From NCBI GenBank assembly GCA_902781895.1, contig CACZLA010000006.1, positions 835-64,834 on the forward strand: a stretch of DNA of 64,000 nt, read 5' to 3'. The position numbers and the translations under genes were made by a program. Within the stretch, counting starts at the first letter, position 1. The number at the start of each line of letters is the position of its first letter. This DNA is from an uncultured Lachnospiraceae bacterium. GTDB lineage: Bacteria > Bacillota > Clostridia > Lachnospirales > Lachnospiraceae. Positions 11,890 to 56,056 of the stretch are shown piece by piece. A model generated the notes under the pieces. It searched no databases and had not been told where the DNA came from. It worked only from the letters and a program-made list of their open reading frames with translations.

Positions 11890-11896
11890 TACTGTT

Positions 11897-39543: not shown

Positions 39544-40351
39544 ATTTTGCTCCCTCCTCAAGTGTCTTGCCATCCATGTTATAGATAGCGTCTATGATAC
39601 GGTTACGGTATGTGGAATTTCCATCTGATGGCTGCATATTTTTCCAGCCTATCTCACCGGCAAGTCCCATAGTACATACAGCTGCAGCTGCAGCTTCCAG
39701 CATGTTATCGGGATTTGCCACAATAAATGCAGTGAGCATACCTGACAGCTGACAACCGGTTCCGGTTATCTTTCCCATCTCGGGGCGTCCGTTTCTTATC
39801 ACATAACATTTTTCTCCATCACTGACCAGATCTATGGCTCCGGTTATGGCTACGATGGAGCCGCTCTTTTTTGAGAAATCCTTTACAAATTTTACGGCCG
39901 CCTCAAGGCTGTCCTCAGTTACGGCATCCGCAACATCAGCATCAACTCCCTTTGTGGTTCCGCTTCCCAGAGCAAGAGTCTTTATCTCGGAAATATTTCC
40001 TCTGATAACATCAAACCTTATCTCCTCCATCAGCTTTACCGCCGTTTCAGTCCTAAGCTTTGACGCTCCCGCTCCGACAGGGTCTAGCAGGGTTTTATGT
40101 CCCAGTTCATTCGCCTTTTTTCCGGCCAGGAACATTCCCTTTATACTGCTCTGATTCAGAGTTCCTATGTTGATGTTCAGACCTCCGCAGATGGATGTGA
40201 TATCCTCCACATCCTCCGGTTCGTCTGACATGATAGGACTTCCTCCGCATGCCAGCAGTACATTTGCCACATCATTAACAGTTACATAGTTCGTAATATT
40301 ATGTACCAGTGGCACATTCTTACGAACATTTTCGATACAGGCACCAAGCAT
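39530..40351 (-). CDS. thiM: Hydroxyethylthiazole kinase
   Basis: 273 aa with PLVHNITNYVTVNDVANVLLACGGSPIM, NIGTL, DPVGAGAS and TGTGCQLSGM. The RBS is AAGGAGG. Confidence 0.92.
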   Translation of the reverse strand: MLGACIENVRKNVPLVHNITNYVTVNDVANVLLACGGSPIMSDEPEDVEDITSICGGLNINIGTLNQSSIKGMFLAGKKANELGHKTLLDPVGAGASKLRTETAVKLMEEIRFDVIRGNISEIKTLALGSGTTKGVDADVADAVTEDSLEAAVKFVKDFSKKSGSIVAITGAIDLVSDGEKCYVIRNGRPEMGKITGTGCQLSGMLTAFIVANPDNMLEAAAAAVCTMGLAGEIGWKNMQPSDGNSTYRNRIIDAIYNMDGKTLEEGAKYEVL

Positions 40352-40370: not shown

Positions 40371-40525
40371 TAAAAATTAAAGCAGATACAACCCGGACGT
40401 GGTATATCTGCTTTTAACTCTAAGCTATCGGCTTTTATATCCCTACGTTGGCATTATCCAAATCAGGTAACGGGTCCAGACAATACAGTCTGTTCTCAGC
40501 CTGTTTCCCACAAGCTCCCCTCTTG
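40371..40525 (-). promoter_or_regulatory. TPP (THI-box) riboswitch with intrinsic terminator expression platform, upstream of thiM
   Basis: The minus strand reads GAGGGGAGC...GGCTGAGA...ACCCGTTACCTGATTTGGATAATGCCAACGTAGGGA (about 40441-40523), matching the conserved TPP aptamer cores. The downstream hairpin AAAGCAGATA / TATCTGCTTT (40379-40414) is followed by AATTTTTA. Confidence 0.9.
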
Positions 40526-40603
40526 TTTTTATTATCATATGCTCAGCATGATGATTTATGATACTTACGCCATTGTAGGCTTTGAATGTCATAAAGTCAA
40601 CAT

Positions 40604-43600
40604 TTATTTCGCACTTTCTTCTTCCGAAACATCATAATAGCCTCTGGTCATCTTTTCTTCAAACTCTTCCTTAGGAAGAGGCTTGTCGAAGAAGAAGCCC
40701 TGCGCATAGTTGCAGTTGTTTTTCATGAGCACACCCAGCTGTTCCTCTGTCTCCACTCCTTCAACTATACACTCGACATTCATCTCGTTTACCATGGCAA
40801 TAACATGCTTGAACATGATCCTGCTCACTTCATCCTTTGATTCGAGATTTTCAGGAAGGAAGCTTCTGTCGACCTTAATAACATTCCAGGGCAGTTCTCT
40901 GATAAGGTTAAGCGATGAATAACCCATACCAAAGTCATCAACCGAAGTAAATATTCCTACACTCTGAAGTCCGCTTACAACTCTCTTCAGATCACTGAAT
41001 CCCACATCTGTTGTTGTCTCGGTAAGCTCTATCTCTATGCAGCTGTGAGGCACATTATGCCTGTCAATGATCTTCAGGATATTCTCAAGAAGATTTGAAT
41101 TGATCATGTGTTTACGGGACAGATTTACGGATATTCTCACAACCTTCTTTCCCATATCAAGCCATCCGCGGATATCTCTGCAGACATGATCCAGCATATA
41201 GAAATCCAGCTTACATATCTCACTGGTTTCCTCCAGCATCGGTATGAATTCACCGGGACTTATCATCTTTCCTCTATGGAACCATCTGCATAATGCTTCG
41301 GCACCTATTATCTCACCTGTCCTAATATCAACCTTTGGCTGATAATAAACCTTAAACTCCTCATCACGAAGAGCATCCGGGAACAGATGCTGAACCTTCA
41401 TTACGTTATTTCTGTCTTCAACCAGATTTCCACTATAGAAAACTATGTTATCCTTTCCGCCGTTCTGTGCTGCCCTGAACGGAGTAACTATCTTCTCCAT
41501 AATGTTACCCGGATGCTGTATCACATAATTATTTGGTATCCTGAATACACCTACATCAGAGGTTATTATTACGGACTTTGCTTCCATGTTATCATAAACT
41601 ATCGTAGTCTCGTTCAGATATGCAAGAACATTTCCAAGCTGTGAGTTATCACAGATAGCAACAAAATTGCCGCCTCCGAGACGAGCCACTGTTCCTCCGT
41701 CTCCTATCATGGATTCAAGATTCTCATAATACTGCTTGGTTATCAGATTACCTGCTCTGTCACTTATCTCACTATTGATAAATGAAAAATGTCTGATATT
41801 GTACATCAGCGCAGACTTACCGCCGATACTCTTACGATTTTCCATAATATATCTATAGAAGCTTCTGAGATTTCTGAATCCGTCATCATCATAAAACGCC
41901 ATTCTCTCTGCTATATCTCTGATACGGTTTCTGCTGAGATAGGTTAATGTAGTCCTTACAACCAGCTCCAGACGACGTCTTTCCTCTTCACCTAATGGTC
42001 GTTCATTCGGCGACATATAAATAGTGATCACAGCAATAGACATTATCTTTGTCACTATCCGAAGAGACATTATCTCTTCCCCTTCTATGCCGGTATCATG
42101 ACATACAAGGGTCTCACTATTTCCAACCAATTCATCATGAGGAGACTTATAAAGCTTTGCTACACCCTTTGAAACCCTGAAGTAATCACCAAACTGATCC
42201 AGAAGTTTCATTATCAGCTCTCTGTCCAGATTGTCAACATCTGTCATGCAGGAGATCAGCTGTTCAAAAAGGTCGTGGAACCTCATATCATGTTCCAATT
42301 TCGCTTTTTCAATAGGGCTTATTTCTTCGTTTCGCTCTTTCTTTACATAGTATCTTTTATTTGCAAACATATATCTGTCTGCACGGTCAAATACGTCCTG
42401 AACCCTGTTATCAAGAGTAGGCTTATATTCAGACATGCCGAACGCAAATGTAACCCGGCCCTTATCTCTGCTTTCCTTAAGCTTTTCAAGGAGTTTACTT
42501 ATCAGTTCATCACGATGCTTATAATCATCACCCTTTAACACAACTGCAAACTCATCTCCGCCTATACGGTAAAGTGTACTGGTTTTATATACTTCGGAAA
42601 GAATCTTAGCCGCATCCTGTATATATTCGTCACCTATTTTATGTCCCTGTTCATCATTGATCTTCTTCAGATCATTTATATCACAGACAAGTATGGCAAA
42701 GCTGAGGCCTATCTGATCATCAATATCACGGTCAGCCTTTATTTCCTGCTGGGCATAGTAACGCTTATTATAAAGACCTGTTAAAGGATCACGATTTGCC
42801 ATATCCATGGCATTTCCAAGGGCGGTTTCCAGATCTATTTCCATTCTTCTTGACTCATCGATATTCGAAACGGCAACTATAACAAAATCCGACTCTTCCC
42901 TCGACTTTACAGCAAAAAGAGTTACGAACTGAGGTCTTCCGTCAATGATCAACCTGTAATTAAGAACAAATTTACCGGTCTGTTCAAGAATCTTCAGCAT
43001 ATAATCCTTCTGCATGGCATGTGCCATCATCGGATAATCCTCAGGAAAAATATCCTTTTTCATATTTTCCTGAGTATCCGCAAAAAAGTCACTTCCCTTT
43101 ATTCCAACCTCAAGCTTTGCGTACTTTTTACTGGAGCTGAACTCCAGATATTCATTCGTTTTCGTATTTACCTGATAAATAACCTCATATCTATGGGCAA
43201 GGGCTGTTGCTATCTCATCAAAGCTCTGGCTTTCGGATTTTATTGCACGCTCACGCCTTACCTGTGCATCAATATTCGTGACACCCATAAGCAGATGCTT
43301 CTCATCATTTTTAGGCCTTACAACCAGCAAGGAAACATATATGGACTTTCCATCGAGAAACTGTCGATAATTCATGGTCATAGAGCCTTCCTTATCGAGT
43401 ATGCTCAGAAGATTCTCCTTATCCATAACACGAAGAACCTTTCTCTGATCATCCTTATGGATGTATCTTTTTATGTCCGGTACGGCATCTTCAAAAAAAT
43501 TACCACCCTTCTTCGTTGTTCCAAGCTTTGCATACTGTTCACTGGCACTGTACTGCACATATGAATCCGTATCCAGATCTACGTAATATATGACTTCATA

Positions 43601-44461
43601 TCTGCTTGCCAGAGATCCGGCTATCTTATCATATATCTCAACCTCATCCTCCTGACGCTTCTGTTCATCGATATTTCTTATACCGATAACGAGATGATCA
43701 TCATTACTCTGCTGTCTGAAAGCTATCAGGTTCATATACTGTACAGTATCATCATAATTCTGCCTGTACACAACAGAATACATTTCATCAACCTGAAGAT
43801 GACTCAGCAGATTATCTCTACTGAGTTCATTTACGAGCATCTCCCTGTCTTCTTCATATATATATTTTCTTATATCTGTTTTGACCCTGTTGAAGAAATC
43901 ATCATCTCCGCCACTCTCTATTCCCAGTTCGGCAAAGGCACTACTGGAATAATATTCTGTATAATGTCCGGTATTTATATCTACATGGTAGATAACCTCG
44001 AACATGCTTGCCAGAGATCCGGCTATTTCCGAATAGATTATAACTCTTTCCTGATCCTTCAGTTCTCTCCGAACCTGTTTATCTATATTCTGAACACCGA
44101 TTATTATATCCTCACCCTTTTTTCTGATAGTCTTCAGAAAATAATACTGAGGATTATTTTCATCATTCAATCTGTAATTCAGTCCGAAGGACTCACCGCT
44201 CTCAAGAGCAGTTTCAACTCTTTCCTTTTTAAAAGCTTCAAGAAATCTTTCCTGATCTTCCGGCCATACATACTGTCTGCACTCTATTTTTACTTCCTCA
44301 TAGAAATCCGTGCCGGTTCTTTTAACCTGCAGTTCATCACCTTCGGAGTAATATTCCACGTAGCTGTCATCCTTTGAATCAACTACATATATGCTTTCGT
44401 AATCATTTGCCAGAGCGAGTGCCAGATCTGAAAATGATGTATTTTTTTCTTTAGCTCCCAT
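40604..44461 (-). CDS. Cytoplasmic c-di-GMP signalling protein: 4 tandem PAS-like modules - GGDEF - degenerate GGDEF - EAL
   Basis: Four ~125-aa repeats start with (R/M)(Y/F)EVIY.V(D/N)..T..Y.E(Y/F). The active-looking cyclase has RIGGDEFAVV. The second domain has LGGGNFVAI. EAL motifs are GAEALCRW, IELTET, DDFGMGYS and EGVETEEQ. The start is moved to ATG 44461 (MGAKEK...), which has a GGAGGGGG RBS. Confidence 0.88.
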   Translation of the reverse strand: MGAKEKNTSFSDLALALANDYESIYVVDSKDDSYVEYYSEGDELQVKRTGTDFYEEVKIECRQYVWPEDQERFLEAFKKERVETALESGESFGLNYRLNDENNPQYYFLKTIRKKGEDIIIGVQNIDKQVRRELKDQERVIIYSEIAGSLASMFEVIYHVDINTGHYTEYYSSSAFAELGIESGGDDDFFNRVKTDIRKYIYEEDREMLVNELSRDNLLSHLQVDEMYSVVYRQNYDDTVQYMNLIAFRQQSNDDHLVIGIRNIDEQKRQEDEVEIYDKIAGSLASRYEVIYYVDLDTDSYVQYSASEQYAKLGTTKKGGNFFEDAVPDIKRYIHKDDQRKVLRVMDKENLLSILDKEGSMTMNYRQFLDGKSIYVSLLVVRPKNDEKHLLMGVTNIDAQVRRERAIKSESQSFDEIATALAHRYEVIYQVNTKTNEYLEFSSSKKYAKLEVGIKGSDFFADTQENMKKDIFPEDYPMMAHAMQKDYMLKILEQTGKFVLNYRLIIDGRPQFVTLFAVKSREESDFVIVAVSNIDESRRMEIDLETALGNAMDMANRDPLTGLYNKRYYAQQEIKADRDIDDQIGLSFAILVCDINDLKKINDEQGHKIGDEYIQDAAKILSEVYKTSTLYRIGGDEFAVVLKGDDYKHRDELISKLLEKLKESRDKGRVTFAFGMSEYKPTLDNRVQDVFDRADRYMFANKRYYVKKERNEEISPIEKAKLEHDMRFHDLFEQLISCMTDVDNLDRELIMKLLDQFGDYFRVSKGVAKLYKSPHDELVGNSETLVCHDTGIEGEEIMSLRIVTKIMSIAVITIYMSPNERPLGEEERRRLELVVRTTLTYLSRNRIRDIAERMAFYDDDGFRNLRSFYRYIMENRKSIGGKSALMYNIRHFSFINSEISDRAGNLITKQYYENLESMIGDGGTVARLGGGNFVAICDNSQLGNVLAYLNETTIVYDNMEAKSVIITSDVGVFRIPNNYVIQHPGNIMEKIVTPFRAAQNGGKDNIVFYSGNLVEDRNNVMKVQHLFPDALRDEEFKVYYQPKVDIRTGEIIGAEALCRWFHRGKMISPGEFIPMLEETSEICKLDFYMLDHVCRDIRGWLDMGKKVVRISVNLSRKHMINSNLLENILKIIDRHNVPHSCIEIELTETTTDVGFSDLKRVVSGLQSVGIFTSVDDFGMGYSSLNLIRELPWNVIKVDRSFLPENLESKDEVSRIMFKHVIAMVNEMNVECIVEGVETEEQLGVLMKNNCNYAQGFFFDKPLPKEEFEEKMTRGYYDVSEEESAK

Positions 44462-44647
44462 AAGCCCCCTCCATATACATATAGTAATTTTAACAAGAAT
44501 ATATAAATCTATCAATCATAAAAAGCTTTTTATATGCTATGAAAAGCCCCTTTTTTCTTTAATAAACAGCTGTGCTGTCTTGAATAAACATTTGAATTAT
44601 GATAAATTACGGAATAGTTGAGTAAAATTTAGATTCGAGGGATCGAC

Positions 44648-46273
44648 ATGTTATATTACTATCTGTTTTTTTCAGTAGTTTTCATACCCCTTACAATTAT
44701 TTTTTATCAGATAATTCCTAAGCGTTTCAGGTGGGTAATGCTCCTGCTTGCAAGCATAGGTTTTTATTTTACGTTCTCTTATTATCTTTTTGTATTTCTT
44801 ATTTTTTCTACCGCCGTTACATACTGCACCGGCCGTATCCTGGAAAGAGTATCCAATAATAAAAAGAACGCCCTGAAGCTCCTGAAGGAAAATAAGGAGC
44901 TGGCTTCAGATAAAGAAGCAATGAAAAAGAGCAAGGCTGATGTTAAGGCAAAGTTCCAGAAGAAATCCAGACTCATACTTACAGTCGGAATCATACTTGC
45001 ACTTTCCACACTGCTTTATCTCAAGTATTACAATTTCTTCGCAGAAAATATAAACTCGTGGTTTGGCTCAAAAGCAAATCCCGAGATACTTCCCATCAGG
45101 ACTCTGGCTCTGCCTCTCGGAATATCCTTCTATACTATGCAGGCCATCAGTTATCTGGTGGATGTTTACTGGGGTAAATATGAAGCGCAGAAGAATCCAT
45201 TTAAGCTTCTGCTCTATCTCTGCTTTTTCCCTACTATCATAGAAGGTCCTATCGCTCTTTATTCAGATATGAAGGACAGACTGTATGTAGGTAATTCCAT
45301 AGATCCCGATAATATTGTCCGGGGCTTCACCCGGTTTATCTGGGGTATCATGAAAAAGCTGGTCATAGCAGACCGTCTCAGTCCGGCTGTTACTCTGTTG
45401 TTTGATCCGGGACATAAGACCAAAGGCTTCGAGGTTATAGCCGCAGCAGTTCTATTTACGGTAATGGAGTATATGGACTTTTCAGGCTGCATGGATATGG
45501 TCATAGGTATAGCACGTATGTTCGGGATAACCCTTCCGGAGAACTTCCGTCAGCCCTTCCTTGCCAGAAATGCTTCTGAGTTCTGGCGCCGCTGGCATAT
45601 ATCTCTGGGTGTGTGGTTCAAGACATACATTTTCTATCCCGTATCAATGTCGGGGCTTTCAAAGAAATGGGGCAAGATAGCCCGGGGAAAAGTCAACAAG
45701 CATCTGACACGTGTTGTTGCTTCAGCTATAGCACTTCTTCCCGTATGGCTTTGTAACGGACTCTGGCATGGTCCGAAGTGGACATACATTTTCTATGGAG
45801 TCTTCTACTTTGTTGTGATAGTACTGGAGCTTCTGCTGGAACCGGTGGGTGACGGAATACTGAAACGCCTTCATACATCCAAAGAAAACAAGGTAGTAAA
45901 TGTTATCCGTATTTTAAAAACATGGATCATTATATTTACGGGTGAGCTTTTCTTCCAGGCATATTCCCTTAAGGAAGGCTTCCGTATGCTTGGCGATATC
46001 GGCCACGGATTTAAAATCAGTTCCTTATGGAACGGTGACGCTCTCACCTGGGGACTGGATTTGTATGACTGGCTGGTGGTTCTTATAATGCTTATCGTTG
46101 TCATCATCATCAATCTTATCAGAGAAAAAGGTGTAGACATACCTGATGCTCTTCTTCACAGACCTCTGGTCTTAAGATGGGCTCTTCTTCTGATGCTTCT
46201 GATGGTGATCACTATATTCGGCTGCTATGGCCCGGGATTTGAGGAGGTGGATCTGATATATGCAGGATTCTAA
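44648..46273 (+). CDS. MBOAT-family membrane O-acyltransferase (DltB/AlgI-like)
   Basis: A polytopic protein with FWRRWHISLGVWFKTYIFYP and the conserved His in NGLWHGPKW. A Lys-rich cytoplasmic insertion lies near aa 70-115. Confidence 0.88.
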   Translation: MLYYYLFFSVVFIPLTIIFYQIIPKRFRWVMLLLASIGFYFTFSYYLFVFLIFSTAVTYCTGRILERVSNNKKNALKLLKENKELASDKEAMKKSKADVKAKFQKKSRLILTVGIILALSTLLYLKYYNFFAENINSWFGSKANPEILPIRTLALPLGISFYTMQAISYLVDVYWGKYEAQKNPFKLLLYLCFFPTIIEGPIALYSDMKDRLYVGNSIDPDNIVRGFTRFIWGIMKKLVIADRLSPAVTLLFDPGHKTKGFEVIAAAVLFTVMEYMDFSGCMDMVIGIARMFGITLPENFRQPFLARNASEFWRRWHISLGVWFKTYIFYPVSMSGLSKKWGKIARGKVNKHLTRVVASAIALLPVWLCNGLWHGPKWTYIFYGVFYFVVIVLELLLEPVGDGILKRLHTSKENKVVNVIRILKTWIIIFTGELFFQAYSLKEGFRMLGDIGHGFKISSLWNGDALTWGLDLYDWLVVLIMLIVVIIINLIREKGVDIPDALLHRPLVLRWALLLMLLMVITIFGCYGPGFEEVDLIYAGF

Positions 46274-47165
46274 AAAATGGCTCCGATGGATAGAGATATT
46301 CTGTTTCCTTGCAGTATTTCTCACAATACTTAAGGTTACCTCCTGGTACACCGATCCGGTTCGAACAGATCAGCCCGAAAAGGTTGTTGCCCGTGATCAG
46401 GCAACTATCGCTGCTCTTGCCGAGCCTGCTGACTCTATGGATGTTATGGTTGTGGGTGACAGCGAGGCCATGGTAATGGTTTCTCCATATGTCATGATGG
46501 ATGAAGCCGGTATAGATGTATACAACTGCAACCAGCTGGGACAGAGAATATCCGAAACCTATTTCTTCCTCCAGAAGATACTGAAGAAACAGCATCCAAA
46601 GGTTTTAGTACTTGAAACAAATGTTATCACCCACGAAACCTCTATCAAGATAGAGCCCCACCTTACCTTCAACGTACTGACACAGGAAGCATTTCCTTTC
46701 CTCAGATATCACAGTAAGTGGAGAGAAAGATTCGGCCTGGTGGAACCGGAGAAATACGACCACTATAAAGGCTACGAGGATATATACGTTGTAGACCCCT
46801 ATGACGGACATCAATATATGTTTGAGACAGGTGAAAAGGCATGGTTCGATCCCATAACCCGTTACTATTTTGATAAGATAGTCAAGCTGTGTGAGTCAAA
46901 GAATATCCCTCTGGTACTGGCCAGTGCTCCATCAGCAATAAATATGGATTATCCAAGGCATAACGCCGTTCAGGAACTGGCGGATAAGTACGGCCTTGAT
47001 TATATAGACTTCAATCTACTGACCGATGAGATAGGCATTGACTGGAGTAACGATACCGGAGATGCCGGAGATCATATAAATACCTACGGCACTACGAAGA
47101 CAACCCGATATCTGATGAATTATCTGAAAGAGAACTATGATCTGCCGGATCATAGAGAGGACTGA
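46260..47165 (+). CDS. Membrane-anchored SGNH/DltD-like accessory protein of the MBOAT system
   Basis: An N-terminal TM helix (IEIFCFLAVFLTIL), VMVVGDSEAM (SGNH block-I-like GDS) and a late GDAGDH block. It overlaps the MBOAT stop by 14 nt. Confidence 0.6.
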   Translation: MQDSKKWLRWIEIFCFLAVFLTILKVTSWYTDPVRTDQPEKVVARDQATIAALAEPADSMDVMVVGDSEAMVMVSPYVMMDEAGIDVYNCNQLGQRISETYFFLQKILKKQHPKVLVLETNVITHETSIKIEPHLTFNVLTQEAFPFLRYHSKWRERFGLVEPEKYDHYKGYEDIYVVDPYDGHQYMFETGEKAWFDPITRYYFDKIVKLCESKNIPLVLASAPSAINMDYPRHNAVQELADKYGLDYIDFNLLTDEIGIDWSNDTGDAGDHINTYGTTKTTRYLMNYLKENYDLPDHRED

Positions 47166-47168
47166 TAT

Positions 47169-48656
47169 ATGAAAAATGTTTTGGAATATCTTGAAAACAG
47201 CGCAAAGCGACTTCCCGATAAAACGGCGGTCATAGATCCGGATGAATCCTGCAGCTTCTCAGAGCTGCAAAACATAAGCTCCAGGATCGGACGTGTGCTT
47301 TCGGAGTATATCTCCCCATCCCGTCCTGTGGCTGTAATGATGAAGAAAAGCACAAAGACGCTTCAGATATTTCTGGGAACAGTATATGCCCGGGGCTTCT
47401 ACTGTCTGCTGGATCCGGACTTTCCGGATGAAAGACATAAGAGCCAGCTCAAAGCGCTGGAGCCTCAGGTCATCATCACCGAGCCCCAGACTCTGGAGAA
47501 GATTGAAAGACTGGGATATAAGGGAAATGTTATCACAACGGATGAGCTGTTCAGCAGAGTAAATGACGCAGAGCCCATTTCCATGGATATGGAAGTTACT
47601 CCCAGCACACCGCTGTACTGTAACTTTACATCAGGATCCACGGGAGTTCCGAAGGGCGTTCTGGTGGGACACGCTTCTGTCATCAGCTTTATAAATACAT
47701 TTACGGAGCTGTTCAATATAACTGAGGATGATATTATCGGAAATCAGGCTCCATTTGATTTTGATGTTTCGGTTAAGGATATATACAGCTGTCTTAAAAC
47801 CGGTGCAACCATGGTCATCATTCCCACAGCTTATTTCAGATTTCCCAACAATGTGGTGGATATGCTGGAGCAGTATAAGGTTACGACACTGACCTGGGCA
47901 GTATCTGCATTGGTTCTTCTGAATCGTCTGCATGTGTTCATGTATAAAACTCCATCTGCTATAAACAAGGTTCTTTTCAGCGGAGAGGAAATGCCGGCCA
48001 AGCATCTGCAGGACTGGATGAAGGAATATCCGGATGCTAAGTTCGTAAACCTGTACGGGCCTACGGAAATAACCTGCAACTGCTCATACTATGAAATAGA
48101 CAGAAATGATGTTCCGGAAAAACTGCCTATAGGAAATGTATTCCCGGGTAAGGAAATATATCTTATAGATGAAAAGGGACGTATCATTCCCGAGACCGAG
48201 GAGGAATCTGTCGGCGAGATATGCGTTGCGGGAAATGAACTGGCACTGGAATATTACAATAACGAAAAGGCTACAGCTGCTTCCTTCGTTGATATAGAGG
48301 GAATCGGCAGAGTCTATAAAACCGGGGACCTGGGATTCAGAAAAGACGGGCTGTTACATTTTGCAGGAAGGCGTGACTTCCAGATAAAACATAACGGTCA
48401 CAGGATAGAGCTGGAAGAAATAGAAAGAGCCATGAACTCACTTCCGGGCATCGGTCAGGCATGCTGTATCTATGACAGTGCAAAGTACCGCATCATCGCT
48501 TATTATACAGGGGAATCTCCCGATAAGAAAATGATAGTTGCCGGTCTGAAGGAAAAGCTTCCTGAGTATATGCTGCCGAATATATTTAAGTATCTGGAGG
48601 AGCTGCCCCTCAGCAAGAACGGAAAGATAGACAGAAACAAACTGAGAGAGATGTAA
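47169..48656 (+). CDS. DltA-like carrier-protein ligase (stand-alone adenylation enzyme)
   Basis: FTSGSTGVPKG, NLYGPTE, YKTGDLGF, GRRDFQIKHNGHRIELEEIE and LPLSKNGKIDRNKL. The size (495 aa) and the FQIK.(H/N)G.RIELEEIE block are as in D-alanine-D-alanyl carrier protein ligases. Confidence 0.85.
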   Translation: MKNVLEYLENSAKRLPDKTAVIDPDESCSFSELQNISSRIGRVLSEYISPSRPVAVMMKKSTKTLQIFLGTVYARGFYCLLDPDFPDERHKSQLKALEPQVIITEPQTLEKIERLGYKGNVITTDELFSRVNDAEPISMDMEVTPSTPLYCNFTSGSTGVPKGVLVGHASVISFINTFTELFNITEDDIIGNQAPFDFDVSVKDIYSCLKTGATMVIIPTAYFRFPNNVVDMLEQYKVTTLTWAVSALVLLNRLHVFMYKTPSAINKVLFSGEEMPAKHLQDWMKEYPDAKFVNLYGPTEITCNCSYYEIDRNDVPEKLPIGNVFPGKEIYLIDEKGRIIPETEEESVGEICVAGNELALEYYNNEKATAASFVDIEGIGRVYKTGDLGFRKDGLLHFAGRRDFQIKHNGHRIELEEIERAMNSLPGIGQACCIYDSAKYRIIAYYTGESPDKKMIVAGLKEKLPEYMLPNIFKYLEELPLSKNGKIDRNKLREM

Positions 48657-48658
48657 AA

Positions 48659-49858
48659 ATGAAAGATATAGAATTAATAAACAAATACGGCACTCCCTTC
48701 TATCTGTATGATATCCCGGAGCTGAAAAAAAGGGTTGATATGATGAAGGGGCATCAGGAAGATATAGGTCTCTGCTATGCCATGAAGGCCTCTCCTGTTC
48801 TGGCCGGATACATAGCTCCCTTCGTAGACCGGCTGGAGGTATGCTCTCCCGGTGAATACGAGATATGCGTAAGAGATAAGGTTGCTCCGGAAAAGATACT
48901 GGTCTCCGGAGTTAACAAAACAAAAGAAAGTATGATGAGGATTCTGTCCCTCGGAGGCGAGGCAGGTATGTTTACCATAGAATCCCGCGAACACCTGAAC
49001 ATACTGGAGGAAGCTGCCGGACAGTTTGTAAAAAATAAAAATAAGCTGAAATGCTATATCCGTCTGACTTCAGGAAATCAGTTCGGAGTGGATAAGGATA
49101 CGTTGGAAGAACTGGCCGGTAAGGTCATGGCTTCGGAGCATCTGGAATTTGTGGGAATCCATTTCTTTTCAGGAACCCAGAAGAATCTGAAAAAGATAGA
49201 AGCCGAGCTGACTGAGCTTACTCAGTACGGAGTCAAGCTCAGCGAAAAGTTCGGTGGGAAAATCAGTCTGGAATACGGTCCGGGACTGAGCATCGATTAT
49301 TTTAACTATGATCCTTCTGATGAGAAAGAAATGTATCTTCATAATGAGTCCTATCTGACTGAACTGATGGATATAGTCGGTAAAACCGGTATCAAAAACA
49401 GCTACTCCGACATAACATTTGAATATGGTCGCTACATAGTTGCAACCTGCGGAAAATATTTTACCGGGATTGCGGATGTAAAAACGAATAACGGCACTAA
49501 CTACGCTATACTTGAGGGCGGTCTGCACCAGATCACATACTTCGGAAGCATGGCAGGAATGAAGGTTCCTTATATTGAGTATATGGGGGATGCCGGAACT
49601 GAAACGCAGGACTATGTTCTCGCCGGATCACTCTGCTCTGTAAATGATATCCTTGTACGCAAGATATCACTTCCCAAGCTTGACATCGGTGATACTCTAT
49701 GTTTCAATATAGCCGGAGCCTACTGTGCAACAGAAGGCATCTCTCTGTTCCTCAGCCGGGATATCCCCGCAATTGTCATTCGAGACATGGAGGGAACGGA
49801 AAAAATCGTAAGAAACCATACGGAAACAAATACATTTAACGGAGGTTACAATGGATAG
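48659..49858 (+). CDS. Fold-type III PLP-dependent decarboxylase (Orn/DAP/Arg decarboxylase family, LysA-like)
   Basis: N-terminal YGTPFYLYD...CYAMKAS (PLP-lysine context), HFFSGTQ, EYGPGL, the EGGLH region and a C-terminal beta domain. There is a 2-nt gap after the adenylase gene. Confidence 0.8.
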   Translation: MKDIELINKYGTPFYLYDIPELKKRVDMMKGHQEDIGLCYAMKASPVLAGYIAPFVDRLEVCSPGEYEICVRDKVAPEKILVSGVNKTKESMMRILSLGGEAGMFTIESREHLNILEEAAGQFVKNKNKLKCYIRLTSGNQFGVDKDTLEELAGKVMASEHLEFVGIHFFSGTQKNLKKIEAELTELTQYGVKLSEKFGGKISLEYGPGLSIDYFNYDPSDEKEMYLHNESYLTELMDIVGKTGIKNSYSDITFEYGRYIVATCGKYFTGIADVKTNNGTNYAILEGGLHQITYFGSMAGMKVPYIEYMGDAGTETQDYVLAGSLCSVNDILVRKISLPKLDIGDTLCFNIAGAYCATEGISLFLSRDIPAIVIRDMEGTEKIVRNHTETNTFNGGYNG

Positions 49859-50075
49859 ACTATTAGAGATATTAGAGGAAATAGTTCCCGGAGAAGACGT
49901 AGAAAACTGCACCACACTGGTAGATGATAACATACTTGATTCATTTGCTATCATCTCACTGGTATCAGCACTGGAAGAGGAATACGATATTGTTATTTCT
50001 CCTGCTGAACTGGTTCCCGAGAACTTTAATTCAGCCGCTTCACTCTGGGAGATGGTTGAAAGACTTTCTGAATAG
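49851..50075 (+). CDS. DltC-like acyl/aminoacyl carrier protein
   Basis: 74 aa with the phosphopantetheine site context DDNILDSFAIISLVSALEEEY. It overlaps the decarboxylase stop by 8 nt. Confidence 0.8.
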   Translation: MDRLLEILEEIVPGEDVENCTTLVDDNILDSFAIISLVSALEEEYDIVISPAELVPENFNSAASLWEMVERLSE

Positions 50076-50089: not shown

Positions 50090-50111
50090 GGGGATGGCTG
50101 ACGCCATCCCC
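50090..50111. terminator. Bidirectional terminator hairpin between convergent operons
   Basis: GGGGATGGC-TGAC-GCCATCCCC is followed by GTTTCATTC on the plus side and TTGTTTAAT on the minus side. Confidence 0.7.
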
Positions 50112-50163: not shown

Positions 50164-52455
50164 TTATTTGGCAAAATTCCTTTTCCAGACACGCTTATTC
50201 TCATACATGATCTTATCCGCACGTCTTATAGTATCCTCAAGATTTTCATCAGCCTCAGGATCGAAAATAGCAACTCCCAGGGAGATATTAACCTCATCCC
50301 ATTCATTTTCCGCCAGCTCACAGATTTCCTTCTTACGACGATAGAAGGATCTTATCATACCTTCCATATTTCGAAAATCCTGATTCTCTATGATGACCGA
50401 AAATTCATCTCCGCCTATTCGGAATACCGAGCTGTTTCTGAACACATGACATATCAGCTGACTTGCACCCTTCAGATAGATATCACCCTTATCGTGTCCA
50501 TAAGTATCATTTATCTTCTTCAGATTATCACAGTCCAGCATACCTATGGCAAAATCAACATCACCATCATTTTCCAGCATCTTCTGAAGTCTTCCGATAT
50601 ATTCGGTAAATGCAGCTTTGTTTCTGACATTGGTAAGTGAATCCGTAAATGCTTTCTTATTCAGATCCTTTACCAGACGATGCTCCTTCTTTACCCTGTT
50701 CTTAAAACGAAGACTACGTATAGACAACACCAGAATTATAAGTGCAATAAGAATTCCAACAAGAAGTATGGGGATGATGTTATCCTTGATAACATCAAAA
50801 AATCCGGTCTTAACATCCTCTGTGGAATAATACATAAGTGCCGCACTTGTTGTTGAACCCGGAACAACATATGTTGTCTTCGACAGGATAGAATACAGTT
50901 CTCCCTCATTTTCACGGACAGCAAAGCAGTAATCCATATCAACTCCGGTATATACTGATGACAGATGAAGTTCCTGACACTGCTTGGAAATGTTATTATA
51001 CCGGTAATTGCTTATAATAACACAGTCTGCATCACCGTCTGCAACTCCTTCAAGTCCCGCCGGAGTATCATCGAAATATGCTACTTTCCATCCCGGATAA
51101 TTGTCCACAAGGAACATCTCATAATTAGTATTTCCCGTATTTACTGCTACAGTGATGTCATCTTTTTTAAAGAATTCTTTCTTTTCAGAAGAACGAACTA
51201 TAGCATCCATTTCCGTGGTCATGAGTGGAGGTGTCATGACCATATTCATTTGTTCTCCCTCATAATCCGAAAGGTTTGCCGGGAACACACAATCTATCTC
51301 ACCATTATTCAATGCCTCCATCGCTTCTGCAGCAGTCTGATAGCATACCGGCTCAAACTCTATTTCCGCATTTTCAAATCCGGTGGATGCATAACTGAGA
51401 TAATCCTTCAAGGCACCCGTAAGCTCTCCTGTTTTAGAATCCTTAGCACAAAATGCCAGATAATTATCCTGATATCCCACACGTATTTTCCCATGTTTGG
51501 AAATATAGTCCAGCTCATCCAACGAAAGATAATGAGCAGTTCCTCCGTTAACCATATACTTTTCGGCAAGAATCTGATTATAGTTTTTATTCTCATCCTG
51601 AATCTTACTGAGGGCCTGATCCAGTTCTTTAAGAAGATCAGGTCTGTCCATGCTCACCGCAAAAAAGATTTCAGCCGAACCAACCTTCCAGACAGGCTCA
51701 ACCGTTCCCGGATCACCAAATGAATCCAGAGTGACAAATGCATCTATCTCGCCACTGCCCAGCATCCGGACAACCTCTTCCTGATTCTTGGTAAGCTCAA
51801 CAAGATCAACATCTATCCCCTGCATATCGGTCCATTTGTAAAACATTTCCTCCTGGACACTGTCTTTATCTACACCAACCTTCTTCCCAACCAGAGAGGA
51901 TACATCATCCATCTTTATTTCGGCGTTATTCGGATTTATATAAATGTAATAAGCCTCTGCCCCCATGGGGAGCGATGCGTAAAGCATCTCCTCCGTACGT
52001 TCATCCGCATAGGATACATCGCCGAGAAGATCTATCTCTCCTTTTTTCAGCATCTCCAGAAGTTCAGACCAGTTGCCCTCAACATATTCATATTCCCAGC
52101 CGGTATAAGCAGCTATCTTTCGCTGATATTCGTATGCATAACCGGATTTTCTTCCGAACTGATCTGTATGGTTAAACTTGGATTCAAACCATCCGACCCG
52201 GACTTTCTTTCTATCTTTTCCCTCAGGATCCTCGCTTGAATTTTCATCGGAAGAATCTTTTACGCTGAGAGTATCATTTGACGAAATATGAATGTTTGAG
52301 GCCGCCAGACTGTCATGGTTATAAAAAGACACAGCAAAAATAACCGCCAGGCATAAGAATATAACCAGCAGTTTTGAGGATGATTTTATATGATATGTTT
52401 TTGGATTGTCTTTTTTAATTCTTAACATGACATTGCTATATTCTGTATGAAACAT
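50164..52455 (-). CDS. Membrane diguanylate cyclase with two extracytoplasmic amino-acid-type solute-binding (SBP_bac_3-like) domains
   Basis: An N-terminal TM helix, two ~230-aa SBP-like repeats (VRVGWFE..., IRVGYQDNY...), a second TM helix, then GGDEF (RIGGDEFSVI, preceded by DCDNLKKINDTYGHDKGD). The start is either ATG 52455 or ATG 52428. Confidence 0.85.
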   Translation of the reverse strand: MFHTEYSNVMLRIKKDNPKTYHIKSSSKLLVIFLCLAVIFAVSFYNHDSLAASNIHISSNDTLSVKDSSDENSSEDPEGKDRKKVRVGWFESKFNHTDQFGRKSGYAYEYQRKIAAYTGWEYEYVEGNWSELLEMLKKGEIDLLGDVSYADERTEEMLYASLPMGAEAYYIYINPNNAEIKMDDVSSLVGKKVGVDKDSVQEEMFYKWTDMQGIDVDLVELTKNQEEVVRMLGSGEIDAFVTLDSFGDPGTVEPVWKVGSAEIFFAVSMDRPDLLKELDQALSKIQDENKNYNQILAEKYMVNGGTAHYLSLDELDYISKHGKIRVGYQDNYLAFCAKDSKTGELTGALKDYLSYASTGFENAEIEFEPVCYQTAAEAMEALNNGEIDCVFPANLSDYEGEQMNMVMTPPLMTTEMDAIVRSSEKKEFFKKDDITVAVNTGNTNYEMFLVDNYPGWKVAYFDDTPAGLEGVADGDADCVIISNYRYNNISKQCQELHLSSVYTGVDMDYCFAVRENEGELYSILSKTTYVVPGSTTSAALMYYSTEDVKTGFFDVIKDNIIPILLVGILIALIILVLSIRSLRFKNRVKKEHRLVKDLNKKAFTDSLTNVRNKAAFTEYIGRLQKMLENDGDVDFAIGMLDCDNLKKINDTYGHDKGDIYLKGASQLICHVFRNSSVFRIGGDEFSVIIENQDFRNMEGMIRSFYRRKKEICELAENEWDEVNISLGVAIFDPEADENLEDTIRRADKIMYENKRVWKRNFAK

Positions 52456-52585: not shown

Positions 52586-53344
52586 TTACCAGCCCAGATC
52601 CATGAGCCAGTTATTAAGAGCTCTCTCTCTTTCCTTTGTATCCTTTGTAGGATCGTTTATGAATTCACCTTCAATATTTCCGTCGATGATGTAGAGCACG
52701 CGGGAGCATTTTGCTGCTACCTTGGAATCGTGAGTTACCATCATGATGGTTGTACCTTCGTTATTAATCTTAGTAAGCTCTTCCATAACCTCGTTTGAGT
52801 TTGCTCGGTTCAGAGCTCCCGTAGGCTCGTCTGCGAAAAGAACTCTCGGCTTATTGATAAGACTTCTGCAGATGCAGGCACGCTGGAGCTGTCCACCGGA
52901 TACCTCGTTGATATCATTGTCAGCAGCCTCGATGATGCCCAGCTTACGCATCAGATCTTCACCAAACTGTGTAACCTCTTTACGTGATCTTTTATTCTTC
53001 TTACTCTGAAGTCCGGGAAGGAGGATGTTATCAAGGATAGTGAGATTCTTCATCATGAACATCTGCTGGAAGATAAATCCCATCTCATCCAGTCTTACGT
53101 CAGAAAGCTCATTTTTCTTCATCTTTGTGATATCTTTATTATTAAAAAGAACTGTTCCGCTTGTTGCATTATCCATACCGGACACGCTGTAGAGAAGAGT
53201 TGACTTACCTGATGCAGATGGTCCCATGATGGCAACCATTTCTCCCTCTTCAACCTTGAAGCTTACGTTCTTAAGAACGTTGTTCTGTCTTTTATTTGTA
53301 ACATAGGTTTTGCATAAATCCTTAACTTCTAATACTGTGCTCAT
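52586..53344 (-). CDS. ABC transporter ATP-binding protein (MacB/Bce-type)
   Basis: Walker A GPSASGKST, signature VSGGQLQR and Walker B LFADEPTGALN. The start is moved to ATG 53344 (MSTVLEVKDL), which has an AAAGGAGAA RBS. Confidence 0.88.
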   Translation of the reverse strand: MSTVLEVKDLCKTYVTNKRQNNVLKNVSFKVEEGEMVAIMGPSASGKSTLLYSVSGMDNATSGTVLFNNKDITKMKKNELSDVRLDEMGFIFQQMFMMKNLTILDNILLPGLQSKKNKRSRKEVTQFGEDLMRKLGIIEAADNDINEVSGGQLQRACICRSLINKPRVLFADEPTGALNRANSNEVMEELTKINNEGTTIMMVTHDSKVAAKCSRVLYIIDGNIEGEFINDPTKDTKERERALNNWLMDLGW

Positions 53345-53368
53345 ATTTATTCTCCTTTTCATTAACTT

Positions 53369-55819
53369 CTATTCGATCGATGCTGTGTCTCTGGCTTTGA
53401 TCGATCCTGTATAAATCGATGTGATCCTGGTGATCAACACTGTTACTGCTACTAACAATAACGGATATTTTAGTAAACCTAAAACGCTATACATGAATTT
53501 GATCGATGTTGCTCCCATCATAGAGAAGATCGCGCCTCCTGCTATATTGGTAAGCGGTATAGATATAGCTACAGCTATCAGTACCGCTATAACCCCCAGG
53601 ATTCCGAATCTTATTACGTGCCATCCGATAATGTCACTGTTTCTGAAACCTACAGCCTTAAGTATTGCTATCTGCTTTTTCTCTCTTGATATGAAGCTTC
53701 TCTCCATCAGCACCGTTACAAGTATGATAACCAGAATTGTGATGATCATCAGCAGCATCTCAACTGCCTGCATGGCATCAAGTGTTCCCATATTATCAAC
53801 ACATTCTTCAGTCTGATCCTTTACTGTACCGGCATTTAAGATATCCTTTATCTTATCTTTTCTTTCTTCTATAGTTTTCTGATCAGGATTATCCGTAAAT
53901 GTTATAAGTATACTCATATAACCGGTAGCAGCCGCAAAATCCGTGGGAACATCTTCGTGTATTCTCATCAACGCTCCCAGATTGTTCATACTCTGGAATT
54001 TTCCGGTTACCGTACATTTATCCTTATAACCATTATAATTGATTTCTATGGTATCGCCGATCTTCATTCCATATGTATCTTCAACAGCCTGCGTAAAAGC
54101 AACTTCATTTTTATTCTGAGGCTGAGTCCCTTCGGTCATTGGATACTCTCCTGTTCCATTTCCCACAACCTGCATGAAGTTATATGCATATTCCTCATTA
54201 TTGTAAGTAAATTTATAAGAATAAATGACGTCGTTATATACCTTTGCCGGCATTCCTTCGCTTGCAAGTTTTTCTTCGATCAGCTTCAGATAATCCTTAT
54301 AGATTTCTTTTCCGTTCTCATATTTTTTAAGCGTATCCGGTTCAATCTCTTTCATATTCCGGAGCTCTTCTATACCGGGAACATCACTATATTTGTCTAT
54401 GAGCTTTGAAATATCCAACGTATCCGGATCCTCATTTGTCAGATACAGATCTCCTCTTACACTGAAGGTATCGATAAATGCGTTACTGTCAAATGTACTT
54501 GTCAGATTTGCAAGTATCAGCAGGAATGTGGTACATATTCCTATAGAAATAACGATATTCAGATATCTCTTCGGACTGCTCAGTATATCATTCCATGCCA
54601 GATATGATGAGTTCCTCAAATGACTCTTACCTATTCTGATTCCTCGTTTTTTCCTGAATCTTTCTCCGGTCTCACCGCTTCTTATTGCATCAACCGGCGT
54701 CATCTTCTTCACCTTTCCGGTAGAAAGAAATGCAAGCAGCATAATGAGTATAAACACAAGGATGGAACCGAGAATATTTATTATCACTCCATAACCATTT
54801 CCAAGCATCATGCTTTTAGATACACTGTCAAGCAGCATATCTCCAAATGGAAAGCTGATCGCACATCCTGCTACCACACCTATCAGACTTATGGCCAGAT
54901 ATTTTATCAGATAAAGTCTTCTTATCTTAAAATTCCTGATTCCGATGGCCTTCATGACTCCTATCTCTCTGAAGTCATCCTGTATGGTAAATCCGATAGA
55001 GAATTTCAGGATTACAAATGATACTATTATCAGACATACACTGAGGATTACAATGATAAATGCAACCATCATATCAACTATTCGAGTAAGGATGATCGTA
55101 CTTCTGGGGAAGCTTCCTCCGGCTCCCTCTAAATCTGTTAATCCCTTTGAAACAGCTTCCACATCATCTGTTTCGATATAAACTATAGTATTACTGAAAG
55201 ATCCTTCCTTATCAGAATCAAAGTACTGCTGTAAATCCTCATTATTCATATATAAACGATTCATACCTGATATGGAAGATCCAAATACAGCATCCTTTAA
55301 TCCGGCATCTATAATATATTCTTTTTCAGCATTATTCAGATTGAGTCTTATCTTGTCACCTGCCTTCAGATCAAACTCTTCCATGAATTTATATGAAAGA
55401 CAGGCATGTCCTTTTTCAACACTCTTTACTTCATTGTTTTCAGAATCAAATAGCTTTATATATGTACTTTCCGGAGACTCTATCATAATAGCCCCGCTCC
55501 AGTCCAGCTTCTTTCCTTTTTCATTCCATACTTCGTCGCTATAGCCAAAATACGAGTCATATGCATAGGACTTAATCTTTTCCGATTCATCCAGCACTTT
55601 ACAAAGGTTTGAATTATCCTTACCGTTATTTATAATAAGCAACAGGTCATCCTTATCTCCCACCGCTTGTTCGAGAAAGTAATCCATTCCCTTCACCACT
55701 GAGAAAAGATTCGAAAGTCCACTGGAAACAAATACACTGGCCAGGATAATGAAAAGAAATAGTATCGCATTCATCGTCTTACTTCTTTTCAGATCCTTCT
55801 TTAAAATCTTAAAAAACAT
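53369..55819 (-). CDS. ABC transporter permease with two FtsX modules and a large extracytoplasmic domain
   Basis: 816 aa with FtsX-type blocks (IGVMKAIGIRNFKIRRLY..., IAILKAVGFRNSDII...) and 10 predicted hydrophobic helices. Confidence 0.8.
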   Translation of the reverse strand: MFFKILKKDLKRSKTMNAILFLFIILASVFVSSGLSNLFSVVKGMDYFLEQAVGDKDDLLLIINNGKDNSNLCKVLDESEKIKSYAYDSYFGYSDEVWNEKGKKLDWSGAIMIESPESTYIKLFDSENNEVKSVEKGHACLSYKFMEEFDLKAGDKIRLNLNNAEKEYIIDAGLKDAVFGSSISGMNRLYMNNEDLQQYFDSDKEGSFSNTIVYIETDDVEAVSKGLTDLEGAGGSFPRSTIILTRIVDMMVAFIIVILSVCLIIVSFVILKFSIGFTIQDDFREIGVMKAIGIRNFKIRRLYLIKYLAISLIGVVAGCAISFPFGDMLLDSVSKSMMLGNGYGVIINILGSILVFILIMLLAFLSTGKVKKMTPVDAIRSGETGERFRKKRGIRIGKSHLRNSSYLAWNDILSSPKRYLNIVISIGICTTFLLILANLTSTFDSNAFIDTFSVRGDLYLTNEDPDTLDISKLIDKYSDVPGIEELRNMKEIEPDTLKKYENGKEIYKDYLKLIEEKLASEGMPAKVYNDVIYSYKFTYNNEEYAYNFMQVVGNGTGEYPMTEGTQPQNKNEVAFTQAVEDTYGMKIGDTIEINYNGYKDKCTVTGKFQSMNNLGALMRIHEDVPTDFAAATGYMSILITFTDNPDQKTIEERKDKIKDILNAGTVKDQTEECVDNMGTLDAMQAVEMLLMIITILVIILVTVLMERSFISREKKQIAILKAVGFRNSDIIGWHVIRFGILGVIAVLIAVAISIPLTNIAGGAIFSMMGATSIKFMYSVLGLLKYPLLLVAVTVLITRITSIYTGSIKARDTASIE

Positions 55820-55920
55820 CGCCCTTCATCCTTTCATAAACTTGTTAAACTATTAGTTATAGTTCGGTACCTTGATTGAAGTATAAAAAATCAATTATTA
55901 AATAATCATTAAGTCCTGAA

Positions 55921-56045: not shown

Positions 56046-56056
56046 TATTATTTTAT

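Follow-up and report, generated by a model that had tools for sequence, protein, structure and literature searches.

A candidate carrier-dependent aminoacylation cassette with an embedded decarboxylase in Lachnospiraceae and related Clostridia

D-alanylation by the Dlt system is the model for surface-charge tuning in Gram-positive bacteria, with roles in resistance to cationic peptides and antibiotics and in host signalling. To our knowledge, it is also regarded as the only envelope pathway of a membrane-bound O-acyltransferase (MBOAT) that uses a carrier protein. Here, we describe a five-gene cassette that combines an MBOAT with loading enzymes and a pyridoxal 5'-phosphate (PLP) decarboxylase, found in a stretch of 64,000 nucleotides (nt) from an uncultured Lachnospiraceae bacterium (contig CACZLA010000006.1), hereafter referred to as the window. 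In the described MBOAT systems, an FxYxxF 'acyl shuttle' motif is carried on the microprotein DltX in Dlt or fused C-terminally on two extra transmembrane (TM) helices in PatA, AlgI and their relatives (PMC12148441). In both DltX and PatA, the Tyr of the motif forms a covalent acyl-Tyr, which in PatA is handed to an SGNH partner, and the systems with the fused motif are reported to use acyl-CoA and hence to have no carrier protein (PMC12148441).

Among PLP decarboxylases of the alanine-racemase fold, BtrK, SbnH, AcsE, FigC and MccE form a subfamily that decarboxylates amino acids which are already conjugated, the substrate of BtrK being Glu thioestered to the carrier BtrI (PMC7857480). Similarly, VinN/VinL/VinO and FlvN/FlvL/FlvO place 3-methylaspartate or Asp on a stand-alone carrier, and decarboxylation takes place only after the thioester has been formed (PMC11284099). 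In this work, we propose, with a rough probability of 0.55, that the cassette in the window is a carrier-dependent aminoacylation system for an extracytoplasmic envelope polymer, in which an amino acid is decarboxylated on the carrier and then exported by an MBOAT and an SGNH protein. Each part is of a known kind, while the combination of Dlt-style loading, a PatA-style self-shuttling MBOAT and tailoring on the carrier appears to be new; full-text searching of the literature found no description of the cassette or of the sister cassette discussed below.

The cassette and its five proteins

The cassette comprises five open reading frames (ORFs) on the + strand at 44648-50075, each pair of which overlaps or is at most 3 nt apart (from 5' to 3': an overlap of 14 nt, a gap of 3 nt, a gap of 2 nt and an overlap of 8 nt). 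An initial annotation of this DNA, made from the sequence alone, had described five tightly packed, co-directional genes here; the ORFs lie where it placed them, and the motifs it quoted (FWRRWHISLGVWF, WHG, GDS, GRRDFQIKHNGHRIELEEIE, ILDS and TPFYLYD...CYAMKAS) are all present. Profile searches, which it had recommended, assigned the Pfam families MBOAT, AMP-binding with AMP-binding_C, both decarboxylase domains and PP-binding, and only the protein of 301 amino acids (aa) was left with no match in Pfam or in NCBIfam. The features of the locus are as follows:

44516..44647, + strand: intergenic region of 132 nt between the cassette and the divergent GGDEF-EAL gene, presumed to hold the cassette promoter
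44648..46273, + strand: MBOAT acyltransferase, 541 aa, with a DltB-like core and two extra C-terminal TM helices
46253..46270, + strand: C-terminal 'acyl shuttle' hexapeptide of the MBOAT, L-I-Y-A-G-F (Tyr538)
46260..47165, + strand: SGNH-fold protein, 301 aa, with an N-terminal TM anchor; predicted final transferase to the polymer
47169..48656, + strand: stand-alone adenylase of the nonribosomal peptide synthetase (NRPS) type, 495 aa, code DVKTLSLCNK
48659..49858, + strand: fold-type III (alanine-racemase-fold) PLP decarboxylase, 399 aa, BtrK/SbnH-like
49851..50075, + strand: acyl/peptidyl carrier protein, 74 aa, phosphopantetheine site Ser31 (ILDS)
50090..50111, both strands: bidirectional G+C-rich hairpin, 9-bp stem with 7 G-C pairs

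The MBOAT matches its Pfam family (PF03062) with an E-value of 1e-14 and carries the motifs FWRRWHISLGVWF, which includes His317, and WHG, which includes His374. Its sole NCBIfam match is DltB (TIGR04091), at 146 bits against a cutoff of 375, and its sole matches among PDB sequences are those of DltB (8jem/6bug; E-value 2e-21, residues 142-393), in which WRRW-His317 and W-His374-G align to the DltB motifs. Beyond this DltB-like core, the protein continues with strongly hydrophobic segments at 473-491 and 507-525 and a 16-residue tail that ends in L-I-Tyr538-A-G-F (residues 536-541). All MBOATs of the family terminate in (L/M/F)-(I/M)-Y-x-x-(F/Y), the Tyr of which is invariant in about 77 of them. 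With a terminal Tyr motif on two extra TM helices, the window MBOAT is of the PatA type and is not built like DltB. The DltB role assigned earlier thus holds for the core, but the fused C-terminal motif is of the PatA/AlgI type and there is no DltX; indeed, neither the 132-nt upstream spacer nor the 88-nt downstream spacer has room for a DltX-like small ORF. A Lys-rich, highly charged insertion of about 45 residues (approximately residues 66-108; 44843-44971) lies between early TM segments, upstream of the DltB-aligned region; this loop may offer the carrier protein, which is acidic, a place to dock on the cytoplasmic side.

In the 301-aa protein, Gly66-Asp67-Ser68 (the GDS block), His151, Asp268 and His272 are invariant among 35 homologues, 23 of which weakly match Lipase_GDSL_2. 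Its AlphaFold2 model (mean confidence score, pLDDT, of 92.7) presents a helix at residues 6-30 and an SGNH fold, and a Foldseek search with this model returned SGNH hydrolases (TesA, E-value 2e-5), with DltD (6o93) only at rank 42. Comparison of the family profile with PDB sequences gave nothing meaningful, and the DltD family PF04914 did not match the window protein and only weakly matched 1 of the 35 family members. The protein probably fills the DltD/PatB role without being an orthologue of DltD; the TM anchor and the GDS block on which the DltD role had been assigned previously are both present.

The adenylase matches AMP-binding (E-value 1e-63) and AMP-binding_C in Pfam. Its GRRDFQIKHNGHRIELEEIE block had been called DltA-type and the ILDS site (Ser31) of the carrier DltC-type; both are present, yet the former is the generic A8 core motif of adenylation (A) domains and the latter a generic carrier-protein site, neither being specific to Dlt. 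The DltA models TIGR01734 and NF003417 give the adenylase 299 and 316 bits, as compared with cutoffs of 560 and 476. Among PDB sequences, the module-2 A domain of LgrA matches best, at 340 bits, while DltA structures score about 200 bits and HitB- and IdnL-like structures (beta-aminoacyl-acyl carrier protein synthetases) 150-173 bits over a partial length. By these scores, the adenylase is much closer to an NRPS A domain than to DltA and lies outside the VinN/IdnL1/CmiS6/HitB lineage. As for the carrier, it matches PP-binding with an E-value of 1e-4, and the DltC models give it 33 (NF003464) and 18 bits, where the cutoffs are 68 and 52.

To read the substrate pocket of the adenylase, its 10-residue code was extracted by alignment to GrsA-PheA; the positions were validated by GrsA itself, for which the published code DAWTIAAICK was recovered. 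The window code, DVKTLSLCNK, includes Asp199 (position 235), Lys203 (position 239) and Lys486, and across 80 homologues the code reads D-V-K-[TIV]-[LM]-S-L-C-N-K. Compared with DLMTMCTVAK, which we take to be the code of B. subtilis DltA, 7 of the 10 positions differ, including Ser at 301 and Lys at 239. Position Cys301 is important for D-Ala selection in DltA. The pocket thus keeps Asp235, the binder of the amino group, replaces the DltA Cys301 by Ser and presents an invariant Lys239. These differences bear out the earlier view that the cargo is not plain D-alanine, and the invariance of Lys239 suggests that the substrate carries an anionic group. The tighter pocket (L/M299, S301, C330, N331) might perhaps fit Asp better than Glu.

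The protein encoded between the adenylase and the carrier is, as first described, a decarboxylase of the Orn/DAP/Arg family (DAP, diaminopimelate), with PF02784 (Orn_Arg_deC_N) and PF00278 (Orn_DAP_Arg_deC) both above cutoff. Its N-terminal motif TPFYLYD...CYAMKAS holds the PLP lysine, Lys43, which is invariant, as are His168, the ExGR motif (Glu255-x-Gly-Arg258), the catalytic Cys326 and the phosphate-binding Tyr355. The lysA model TIGR01048 gives it 146 bits against a cutoff of 298. Its Cys loop reads C-S-V-N-D, which resembles C-T-P-E-D in BtrK and C-T-P-K-D in SbnH and not C-E-S/T-G-D in DAP decarboxylases, and the Arg of the NDLIRP specificity helix of the latter is missing, with the region reading GGLHQITY. 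By these residues, it is not an ordinary DAP decarboxylase, in agreement with the initial annotation, which had set its proposal against an ordinary meso-DAP enzyme. The best solved relatives by sequence are BtrK (E-value 2e-23) and SbnH, ahead of all DAP decarboxylases, and BtrK also ranks first by fold (7ru7, TM-score 0.82; Foldseek), so that the parallel to BtrK drawn at the outset stands, at an identity of only about 23%.

Conservation across genomes and a sister cassette

Conservation was examined by a motif-guided scan of one genome per GTDB species, with the decarboxylase as query. Its relatives are encoded in at least 477 species-level genomes, and the gene-order counts given here cover the best 80 of the 477 loci. 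These 80 come almost entirely from Lachnospiraceae, Butyrivibrio, Eubacterium, Clostridium, Coprococcus, Roseburia, Agathobacter, Butyricicoccaceae and Allofournierella. Denoting the MBOAT as M, the SGNH protein as P, the adenylase as A, the decarboxylase as D and the carrier as C, all five genes stand together on one strand in 69 of the 80 loci, in the window's order M-P-A-D-C in 33 and as A-D-C-M-P in 36; the other 11 mostly have little flanking DNA. Such co-occurrence on one strand goes far beyond chance. The A-D-C trio and the M-P pair are almost never split, and as each stays contiguous, they can be considered two functional modules. The decarboxylase keeps a constant position, at 41-70% identity, across families of Clostridia, and the carrier gene always follows it directly, at 58-95% identity across loci. 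A failure to find the decarboxylase at this position in related genomes had been named beforehand as grounds for abandoning the proposal; instead, the cassette is kept in the 69 loci, in support of the initial reading as a Dlt-like surface-acylation operon that depends on a carrier and holds a PLP decarboxylase.

The general features of the MBOAT-SGNH class, namely a catalytic His, a C-terminal Tyr hexapeptide and an adjacent, anchored SGNH partner with Ser and His, are all found here. The carrier-free state of the PatA/AlgI-type subclass is not, since an adenylase and a carrier are encoded in 69 of the 80 loci, a count that concerns genes only. The genes flanking the cassette vary widely between genomes, which indicates a self-contained cassette, and a census of these genes revealed no conserved gene for synthesis of an acceptor, with only two-component and ABC/FtsX genes being recurrent.

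In about 10 genomes, including that of Coprococcus hominis, one trio lies between two paralogous exporter pairs, in the order M-P-A-D-C-M'-P' (L050, 4762-13066; also L051, L052, L056, L061, L063, L064, L065, L073 and L084). The second MBOAT of these loci is 66% identical to MBOATs of the A-D-C-M-P type. This arrangement points to two exporters being supplied by a single loaded carrier and, perhaps, to two acceptor polymers. MBOAT-SGNH gene pairs of these same families also occur with no adenylase, decarboxylase or carrier gene nearby (L088/L089, 5500-7999; L090, 5396-8125). The L088/L089 pair sits in a locus of the capsule/wall-polysaccharide type, with Wzz, LytR-CpsA-Psr, glycosyltransferases and dTDP-sugar enzymes, while the neighbours of the L090 pair are limited to genes for nucleotide-sugar epimerase and dehydrogenase. 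Identity between the stand-alone MBOAT and the trio-linked ones is 40-47%, the value for that of the window being 40%. As these pairs lie near polysaccharide genes, they hint by analogy at a wall polysaccharide as acceptor, either in place of teichoic acid or in addition to it.

Some loci present further variations. In L068 (8962-13641), genes for a clostripain-family peptidase (PF03415) and a 339-aa protein separate the decarboxylase gene from that of the carrier, and the locus contains no MBOAT. In the Oscillospiraceae-type versions L004 and L067 (Limivicinus, Allofournierella), the place between MBOAT and adenylase (L004, 5448-6494, and its L067 equivalent) is taken by a gene for a 348-aa TM-anchored protein that is unrelated to the SGNH protein, has no Pfam match and no GDS block, and carries GHS and D-x-D-G-H; the MBOAT of these loci, at only about 30% identity, still ends in the Tyr motif. 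In L001 (10750-13087) and 7 other loci, the cassette is followed at a short distance by genes for DAP epimerase and a class I/II aminotransferase, which probably reflect synteny inherited among related genomes. DAP was considered as a substrate on account of these neighbours and was rejected, as the distal-site residues of DAP decarboxylases are missing from the cassette enzyme.

Distant homologues of the SGNH protein led to a large sister family from abundant Lachnospiraceae and Clostridiaceae, of which one adenylase cluster alone holds 1,544 sequences. The genes of the sister cassette are in the order adenylase, carrier, MBOAT, SGNH-like protein, a protein of about 160 aa and a transglutaminase-core (/Big_2) protein, with no decarboxylase (L093, 6279-13411; L096, 7001-14499; L097, 8001-16006; L098, 7269-14714; L099, 8001-15446), and the MBOAT again has the Tyr motif. 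In 5 of 6 distinct sister genomes, a PF01177 racemase gene overlaps the start of the adenylase gene or lies at the downstream end. This racemase scores 190-207 bits with the aspartate racemase model TIGR00035 (cutoff 93), with one copy also passing the cysteate-racemase model, and is very distant from glutamate racemase. As for the sister adenylases, they share 38% identity with the window family, about 30% with DltA and 27-30% with GrsA, and their code, DAKCAGLGMK, again has an invariant Lys239. The contig of L091, another locus of the sister family, begins inside the adenylase gene, so that no control for Lys239 was obtainable from it, and the longer sister contigs show the racemase. Taken together, adenylases with Lys239 that feed this type of MBOAT come with a decarboxylase or a racemase, and both of these accessory enzymes appear to act on the alpha-carbon of an acidic amino acid of the size of Asp. 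The sister cassette would then probably export a D-Asp-type residue, and since its racemase is of the aspartate type, an Asp-type substrate can be suggested for the window cassette as well; of the two cargoes named at first, 4-aminobutyryl and beta-alanyl, the latter is thus favoured.

Proposed pathway and alternatives

From the gene content, the conservation of two modules, the folds and motifs, and active sites that are neither those of DltA nor those of LysA, we infer the following order of steps, with the amino acid, the carboxyl group loaded and the acceptor as indicated. The adenylase would activate an Asp-type amino acid and thioester it to Ser31 of the carrier, most likely through the side-chain carboxyl. 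The BtrK-like enzyme would then strip the free alpha-carboxyl on the carrier, yielding beta-alanyl-S-carrier (or, less likely, 4-aminobutyryl-S-carrier, if the amino acid is Glu). His317 of the MBOAT would move the acyl group from the carrier to the enzyme's own Tyr538 at the outer face of the membrane, from where Ser68 of the SGNH protein would take it and esterify a hydroxyl of the polymer, thus adding a positive charge. These export steps follow the mechanism that has been demonstrated for DltB/DltX/DltD and PatA/PatB (PMC12148441). The MBOAT is placed as the acceptor from the carrier because no other protein of the cassette could take the acyl group and because the sole match of its core is DltB, which alone among characterised MBOATs uses a carrier protein. 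That decarboxylation takes place on the carrier and not before loading is proposed by analogy to BtrK, with indirect support from the match to BtrK in sequence and fold, from the type of Cys loop and from the constant place of the decarboxylase gene between those for the adenylase and the carrier. For loading and decarboxylation, the Vin and Flv systems offer an exact biochemical precedent (PMC11284099), with which the logic would be shared, probably by convergence, as the adenylase is not of the VinN lineage.

Several points weigh against this proposal and should be considered when referring to it. It is built on sequence and models. The amino acid is deduced from a single residue of the pocket and from the sister cassette. 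The code of the pocket matches none known to us, and VinN-type enzymes are no close relatives of the adenylase. The fold search places DAP decarboxylases almost level with BtrK, so that fold alone does not discriminate between them; the active-site motifs do. As M-P pairs lacking loading genes exist, this type of MBOAT can presumably use another donor. The variable flanking genes give no clue to the acceptor polymer, and loci L027, L028, L045 and L068 depart from the pattern.

Among the alternatives, decarboxylation could come before loading, as the initial annotation had also considered: a free amino acid would be converted (for example, Asp to beta-alanine, or Glu to 4-aminobutyrate, GABA), the adenylase would load the product, and export would proceed as proposed. 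Gene adjacency cannot tell these two orders apart, nor does the fold search separate decarboxylases that act on carriers from those that act on free substrates. However, the invariant Lys239 suggests that the substrate of the adenylase is still anionic, and the A domains known to us that activate beta-alanine lack Asp235, which the window adenylase keeps. In addition, the nearest characterised decarboxylases, BtrK and SbnH, act on conjugated substrates, and the Vin and Flv precedents require the thioester (PMC11284099). We thus consider decarboxylation before loading unlikely, although it should be kept in mind. The PLP enzyme could also perform beta-decarboxylation and/or epimerisation on an alpha-linked aspartyl-carrier, providing (D-)alanyl-carrier with no need for alanine racemase. 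The alanine-racemase fold, seen also in a weak PF01168 match and in the name 'alanine racemase' that some databases give to homologues, would agree with such a reaction, and an alpha-linked acidic substrate fits the conventional mode of A domains, with Lys239 on the side-chain carboxylate. Yet homology to alpha-decarboxylases is much stronger, the catalytic set is intact, and we know of no fold-type III beta-decarboxylase, all of which makes this chemistry very improbable.

Two further explanations question the cassette as a unit. The M-P pair and the trio might be unrelated neighbours, with the pair being an ordinary acetyl-CoA-dependent O-acetyltransferase of wall polysaccharide and the trio making some other product, for instance a small metabolite or a lipid head group. 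Indeed, the same M-P family is found with no trio in the capsule-type locus L088/L089 and in L090, the stand-alone MBOAT is about as similar to that of the window (40%) as are some trio-linked ones, and MBOATs with the fused motif have been published as acyl-CoA users (PMC12148441). Against this stand the adjacency and co-directionality of pair and trio in 69 of the 80 loci, in two permutations as well as in the form with two pairs, the repetition of the adenylase-carrier-MBOAT-SGNH order in the sister family, and the trio's lack of any other off-loading enzyme, as Pfam and NCBIfam revealed no condensation domain, thioesterase, ketosynthase or acyltransferase. We therefore regard two independent modules as rather improbable. 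Hardly credible is an ordinary, if divergent, paralogue of Dlt for D-alanylation, with a housekeeping LysA caught in the operon by chance. Three of the proteins do have DltA, DltB or DltC as their top or nearly top assignment in NCBIfam, but every score falls far short of its curated cutoff, 7 of 10 positions in the pocket of the adenylase are unlike those of DltA, Cys301 included, the substrate-binding residues of DAP decarboxylases are missing, and the decarboxylase holds its position at 41-70% identity.

A broader view can tentatively be offered, which we hold at somewhat less than even odds. The cassettes of gut and rumen Clostridia may constitute a modular, programmable platform for envelope aminoacylation, in which interchangeable loading modules (adenylase and carrier, with a decarboxylase or a racemase) feed PatA-like exporters, giving beta-alanyl or 4-aminobutyryl esters here and D-Asp-type residues in the sister. 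If true, the cargoes would be ones never reported on bacterial wall polymers, the published view of fused-shuttle MBOATs as independent of carriers would be overturned, and PLP decarboxylation on a carrier would be met for the first time outside of secondary metabolism.

The cassette also contradicts the published generalisation that MBOATs with a fused motif have no carrier (PMC12148441). Its hosts, at least 477 species of Lachnospiraceae and related Clostridia, are dominant commensals of the gut and rumen, the envelope chemistry of which is almost unknown. Should the cargo be beta-alanyl or GABA, the chemistry of the ester, and possibly its stability, would differ from those of D-alanyl, and Asp or Glu would be the direct source of the cargo. 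Cultured strains such as Coprococcus hominis CLA-AA-H212, Lachnospiraceae bacterium NE2001 or AC2031 and Eubacterium sp. MSJ-21 offer a direct test.

Genomic surroundings and comparison with known systems

Upstream, the cassette is bordered by a divergent GGDEF-EAL gene (1303 aa, 40604-44515, - strand) and downstream by a convergent GGDEF gene with a solute-binding domain (50164-52455, - strand). The hairpin at 50090-50111 is likely a terminator common to the cassette and the convergent gene; the divergent upstream gene and the hairpin that separates off the convergent one mark the cassette as a self-contained unit. In 44516-44647, matches to sigma-70-like promoters were weak and no more numerous than in shuffled sequence, and an Rfam search upstream of the cassette found no riboswitch or other element. 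The window holds three genes for turnover of cyclic di-GMP, two being those that flank the cassette and the third encoding an EAL protein further off (4371-6305, - strand).

At 2.5 kb downstream of the cassette (52586-58298, - strand) is a two-component system with an ATP-binding cassette (ABC)/FtsX transporter, comprising a response regulator (57636-58298), a histidine kinase (56057-57289), an FtsX/MacB-type permease (53369-55819) and an ABC ATPase (52586-53362). Two-component/ABC genes likewise adjoin the cassette in L004, L010, L014, L019, L040, L067 and the L050 group. Such genes recall the peptide-sensing modules that control dlt, and by this analogy there may be a regulatory link to the cassette.

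Elsewhere in the window, three co-directional genes at 6331-14578 (- strand) encode an Hsp70/DnaK-like protein (564 aa), a tetratricopeptide (TPR)-repeat protein (1286 aa) and an 893-aa protein, the C-terminal part of which is a TagF-type CDP-glycerol glycerophosphotransferase domain; the trio of Hsp70/DnaK-like, TPR and TagF-type proteins is an unusual combination. The TagF-like polymerase to which the initial annotation pointed is thus real (Glyphos_transf). As evidence for the acceptor, however, it was rejected, because it lies 30 kb away in another operon and nothing links it to the cassette. An ordinary thiamine pyrophosphate riboswitch (RF00059, 59.6 bits; 40423-40531, - strand) lies upstream of thiamine genes for hydroxyethylthiazole kinase (39530-40351) and thiamine monophosphate synthase (38902-39573).

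When the cassette is compared with described systems, an AMP-forming ligase paired with a decarboxylase resembling DAP decarboxylase is also found in exopolysaccharide loci, as the exosortase-A-associated pair TIGR03098/TIGR03099, and both models match the window proteins. The scores, however, are 177 against a cutoff of 592 and 138 against 478, and the pair is proteobacterial and uncharacterised, with no known MBOAT link. In the butirosin system, the product goes to an aminoglycoside rather than to a membrane exporter, and BtrJ is an ATP-grasp ligase, not an A domain. What BtrI/BtrJ/BtrK share with the cassette is a PLP decarboxylase of the alanine-racemase fold and an acidic amino acid thioestered by its side chain to a carrier (PMC7857480), the latter being proposed for the cassette. 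The Vin and Flv systems similarly present a stand-alone A enzyme, a stand-alone carrier and PLP decarboxylation on the carrier to give a beta-aminoacyl thioester (PMC11284099); they differ in belonging to actinomycete secondary metabolism, in feeding a polyketide synthase and in the lineage of the adenylase.

On the export side, PatA/PatB, as well as AlgI and WssH, share with the cassette a C-terminal FxYxxF-type Tyr on two added TM helices and a separate, membrane-anchored SGNH partner. These systems use acyl-CoA with no carrier (PMC12148441), whereas the cassette operon encodes an adenylase, a carrier and a decarboxylase. Relative to Dlt, the cassette lacks DltX, its shuttle motif being fused to the MBOAT on two extra TM helices, its adenylase pocket is not of the D-Ala type, its SGNH protein is not an orthologue of DltD, a PLP decarboxylase is encoded between adenylase and carrier, and all curated Dlt cutoffs are missed. 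Nonetheless, both systems present an adenylase for loading a small carrier, a DltB-like MBOAT core, an acyl-Tyr motif and a TM-anchored transferase of the SGNH fold, and the outcome expected of the cassette is the same as that of Dlt, namely a cationic ester on an envelope polymer.

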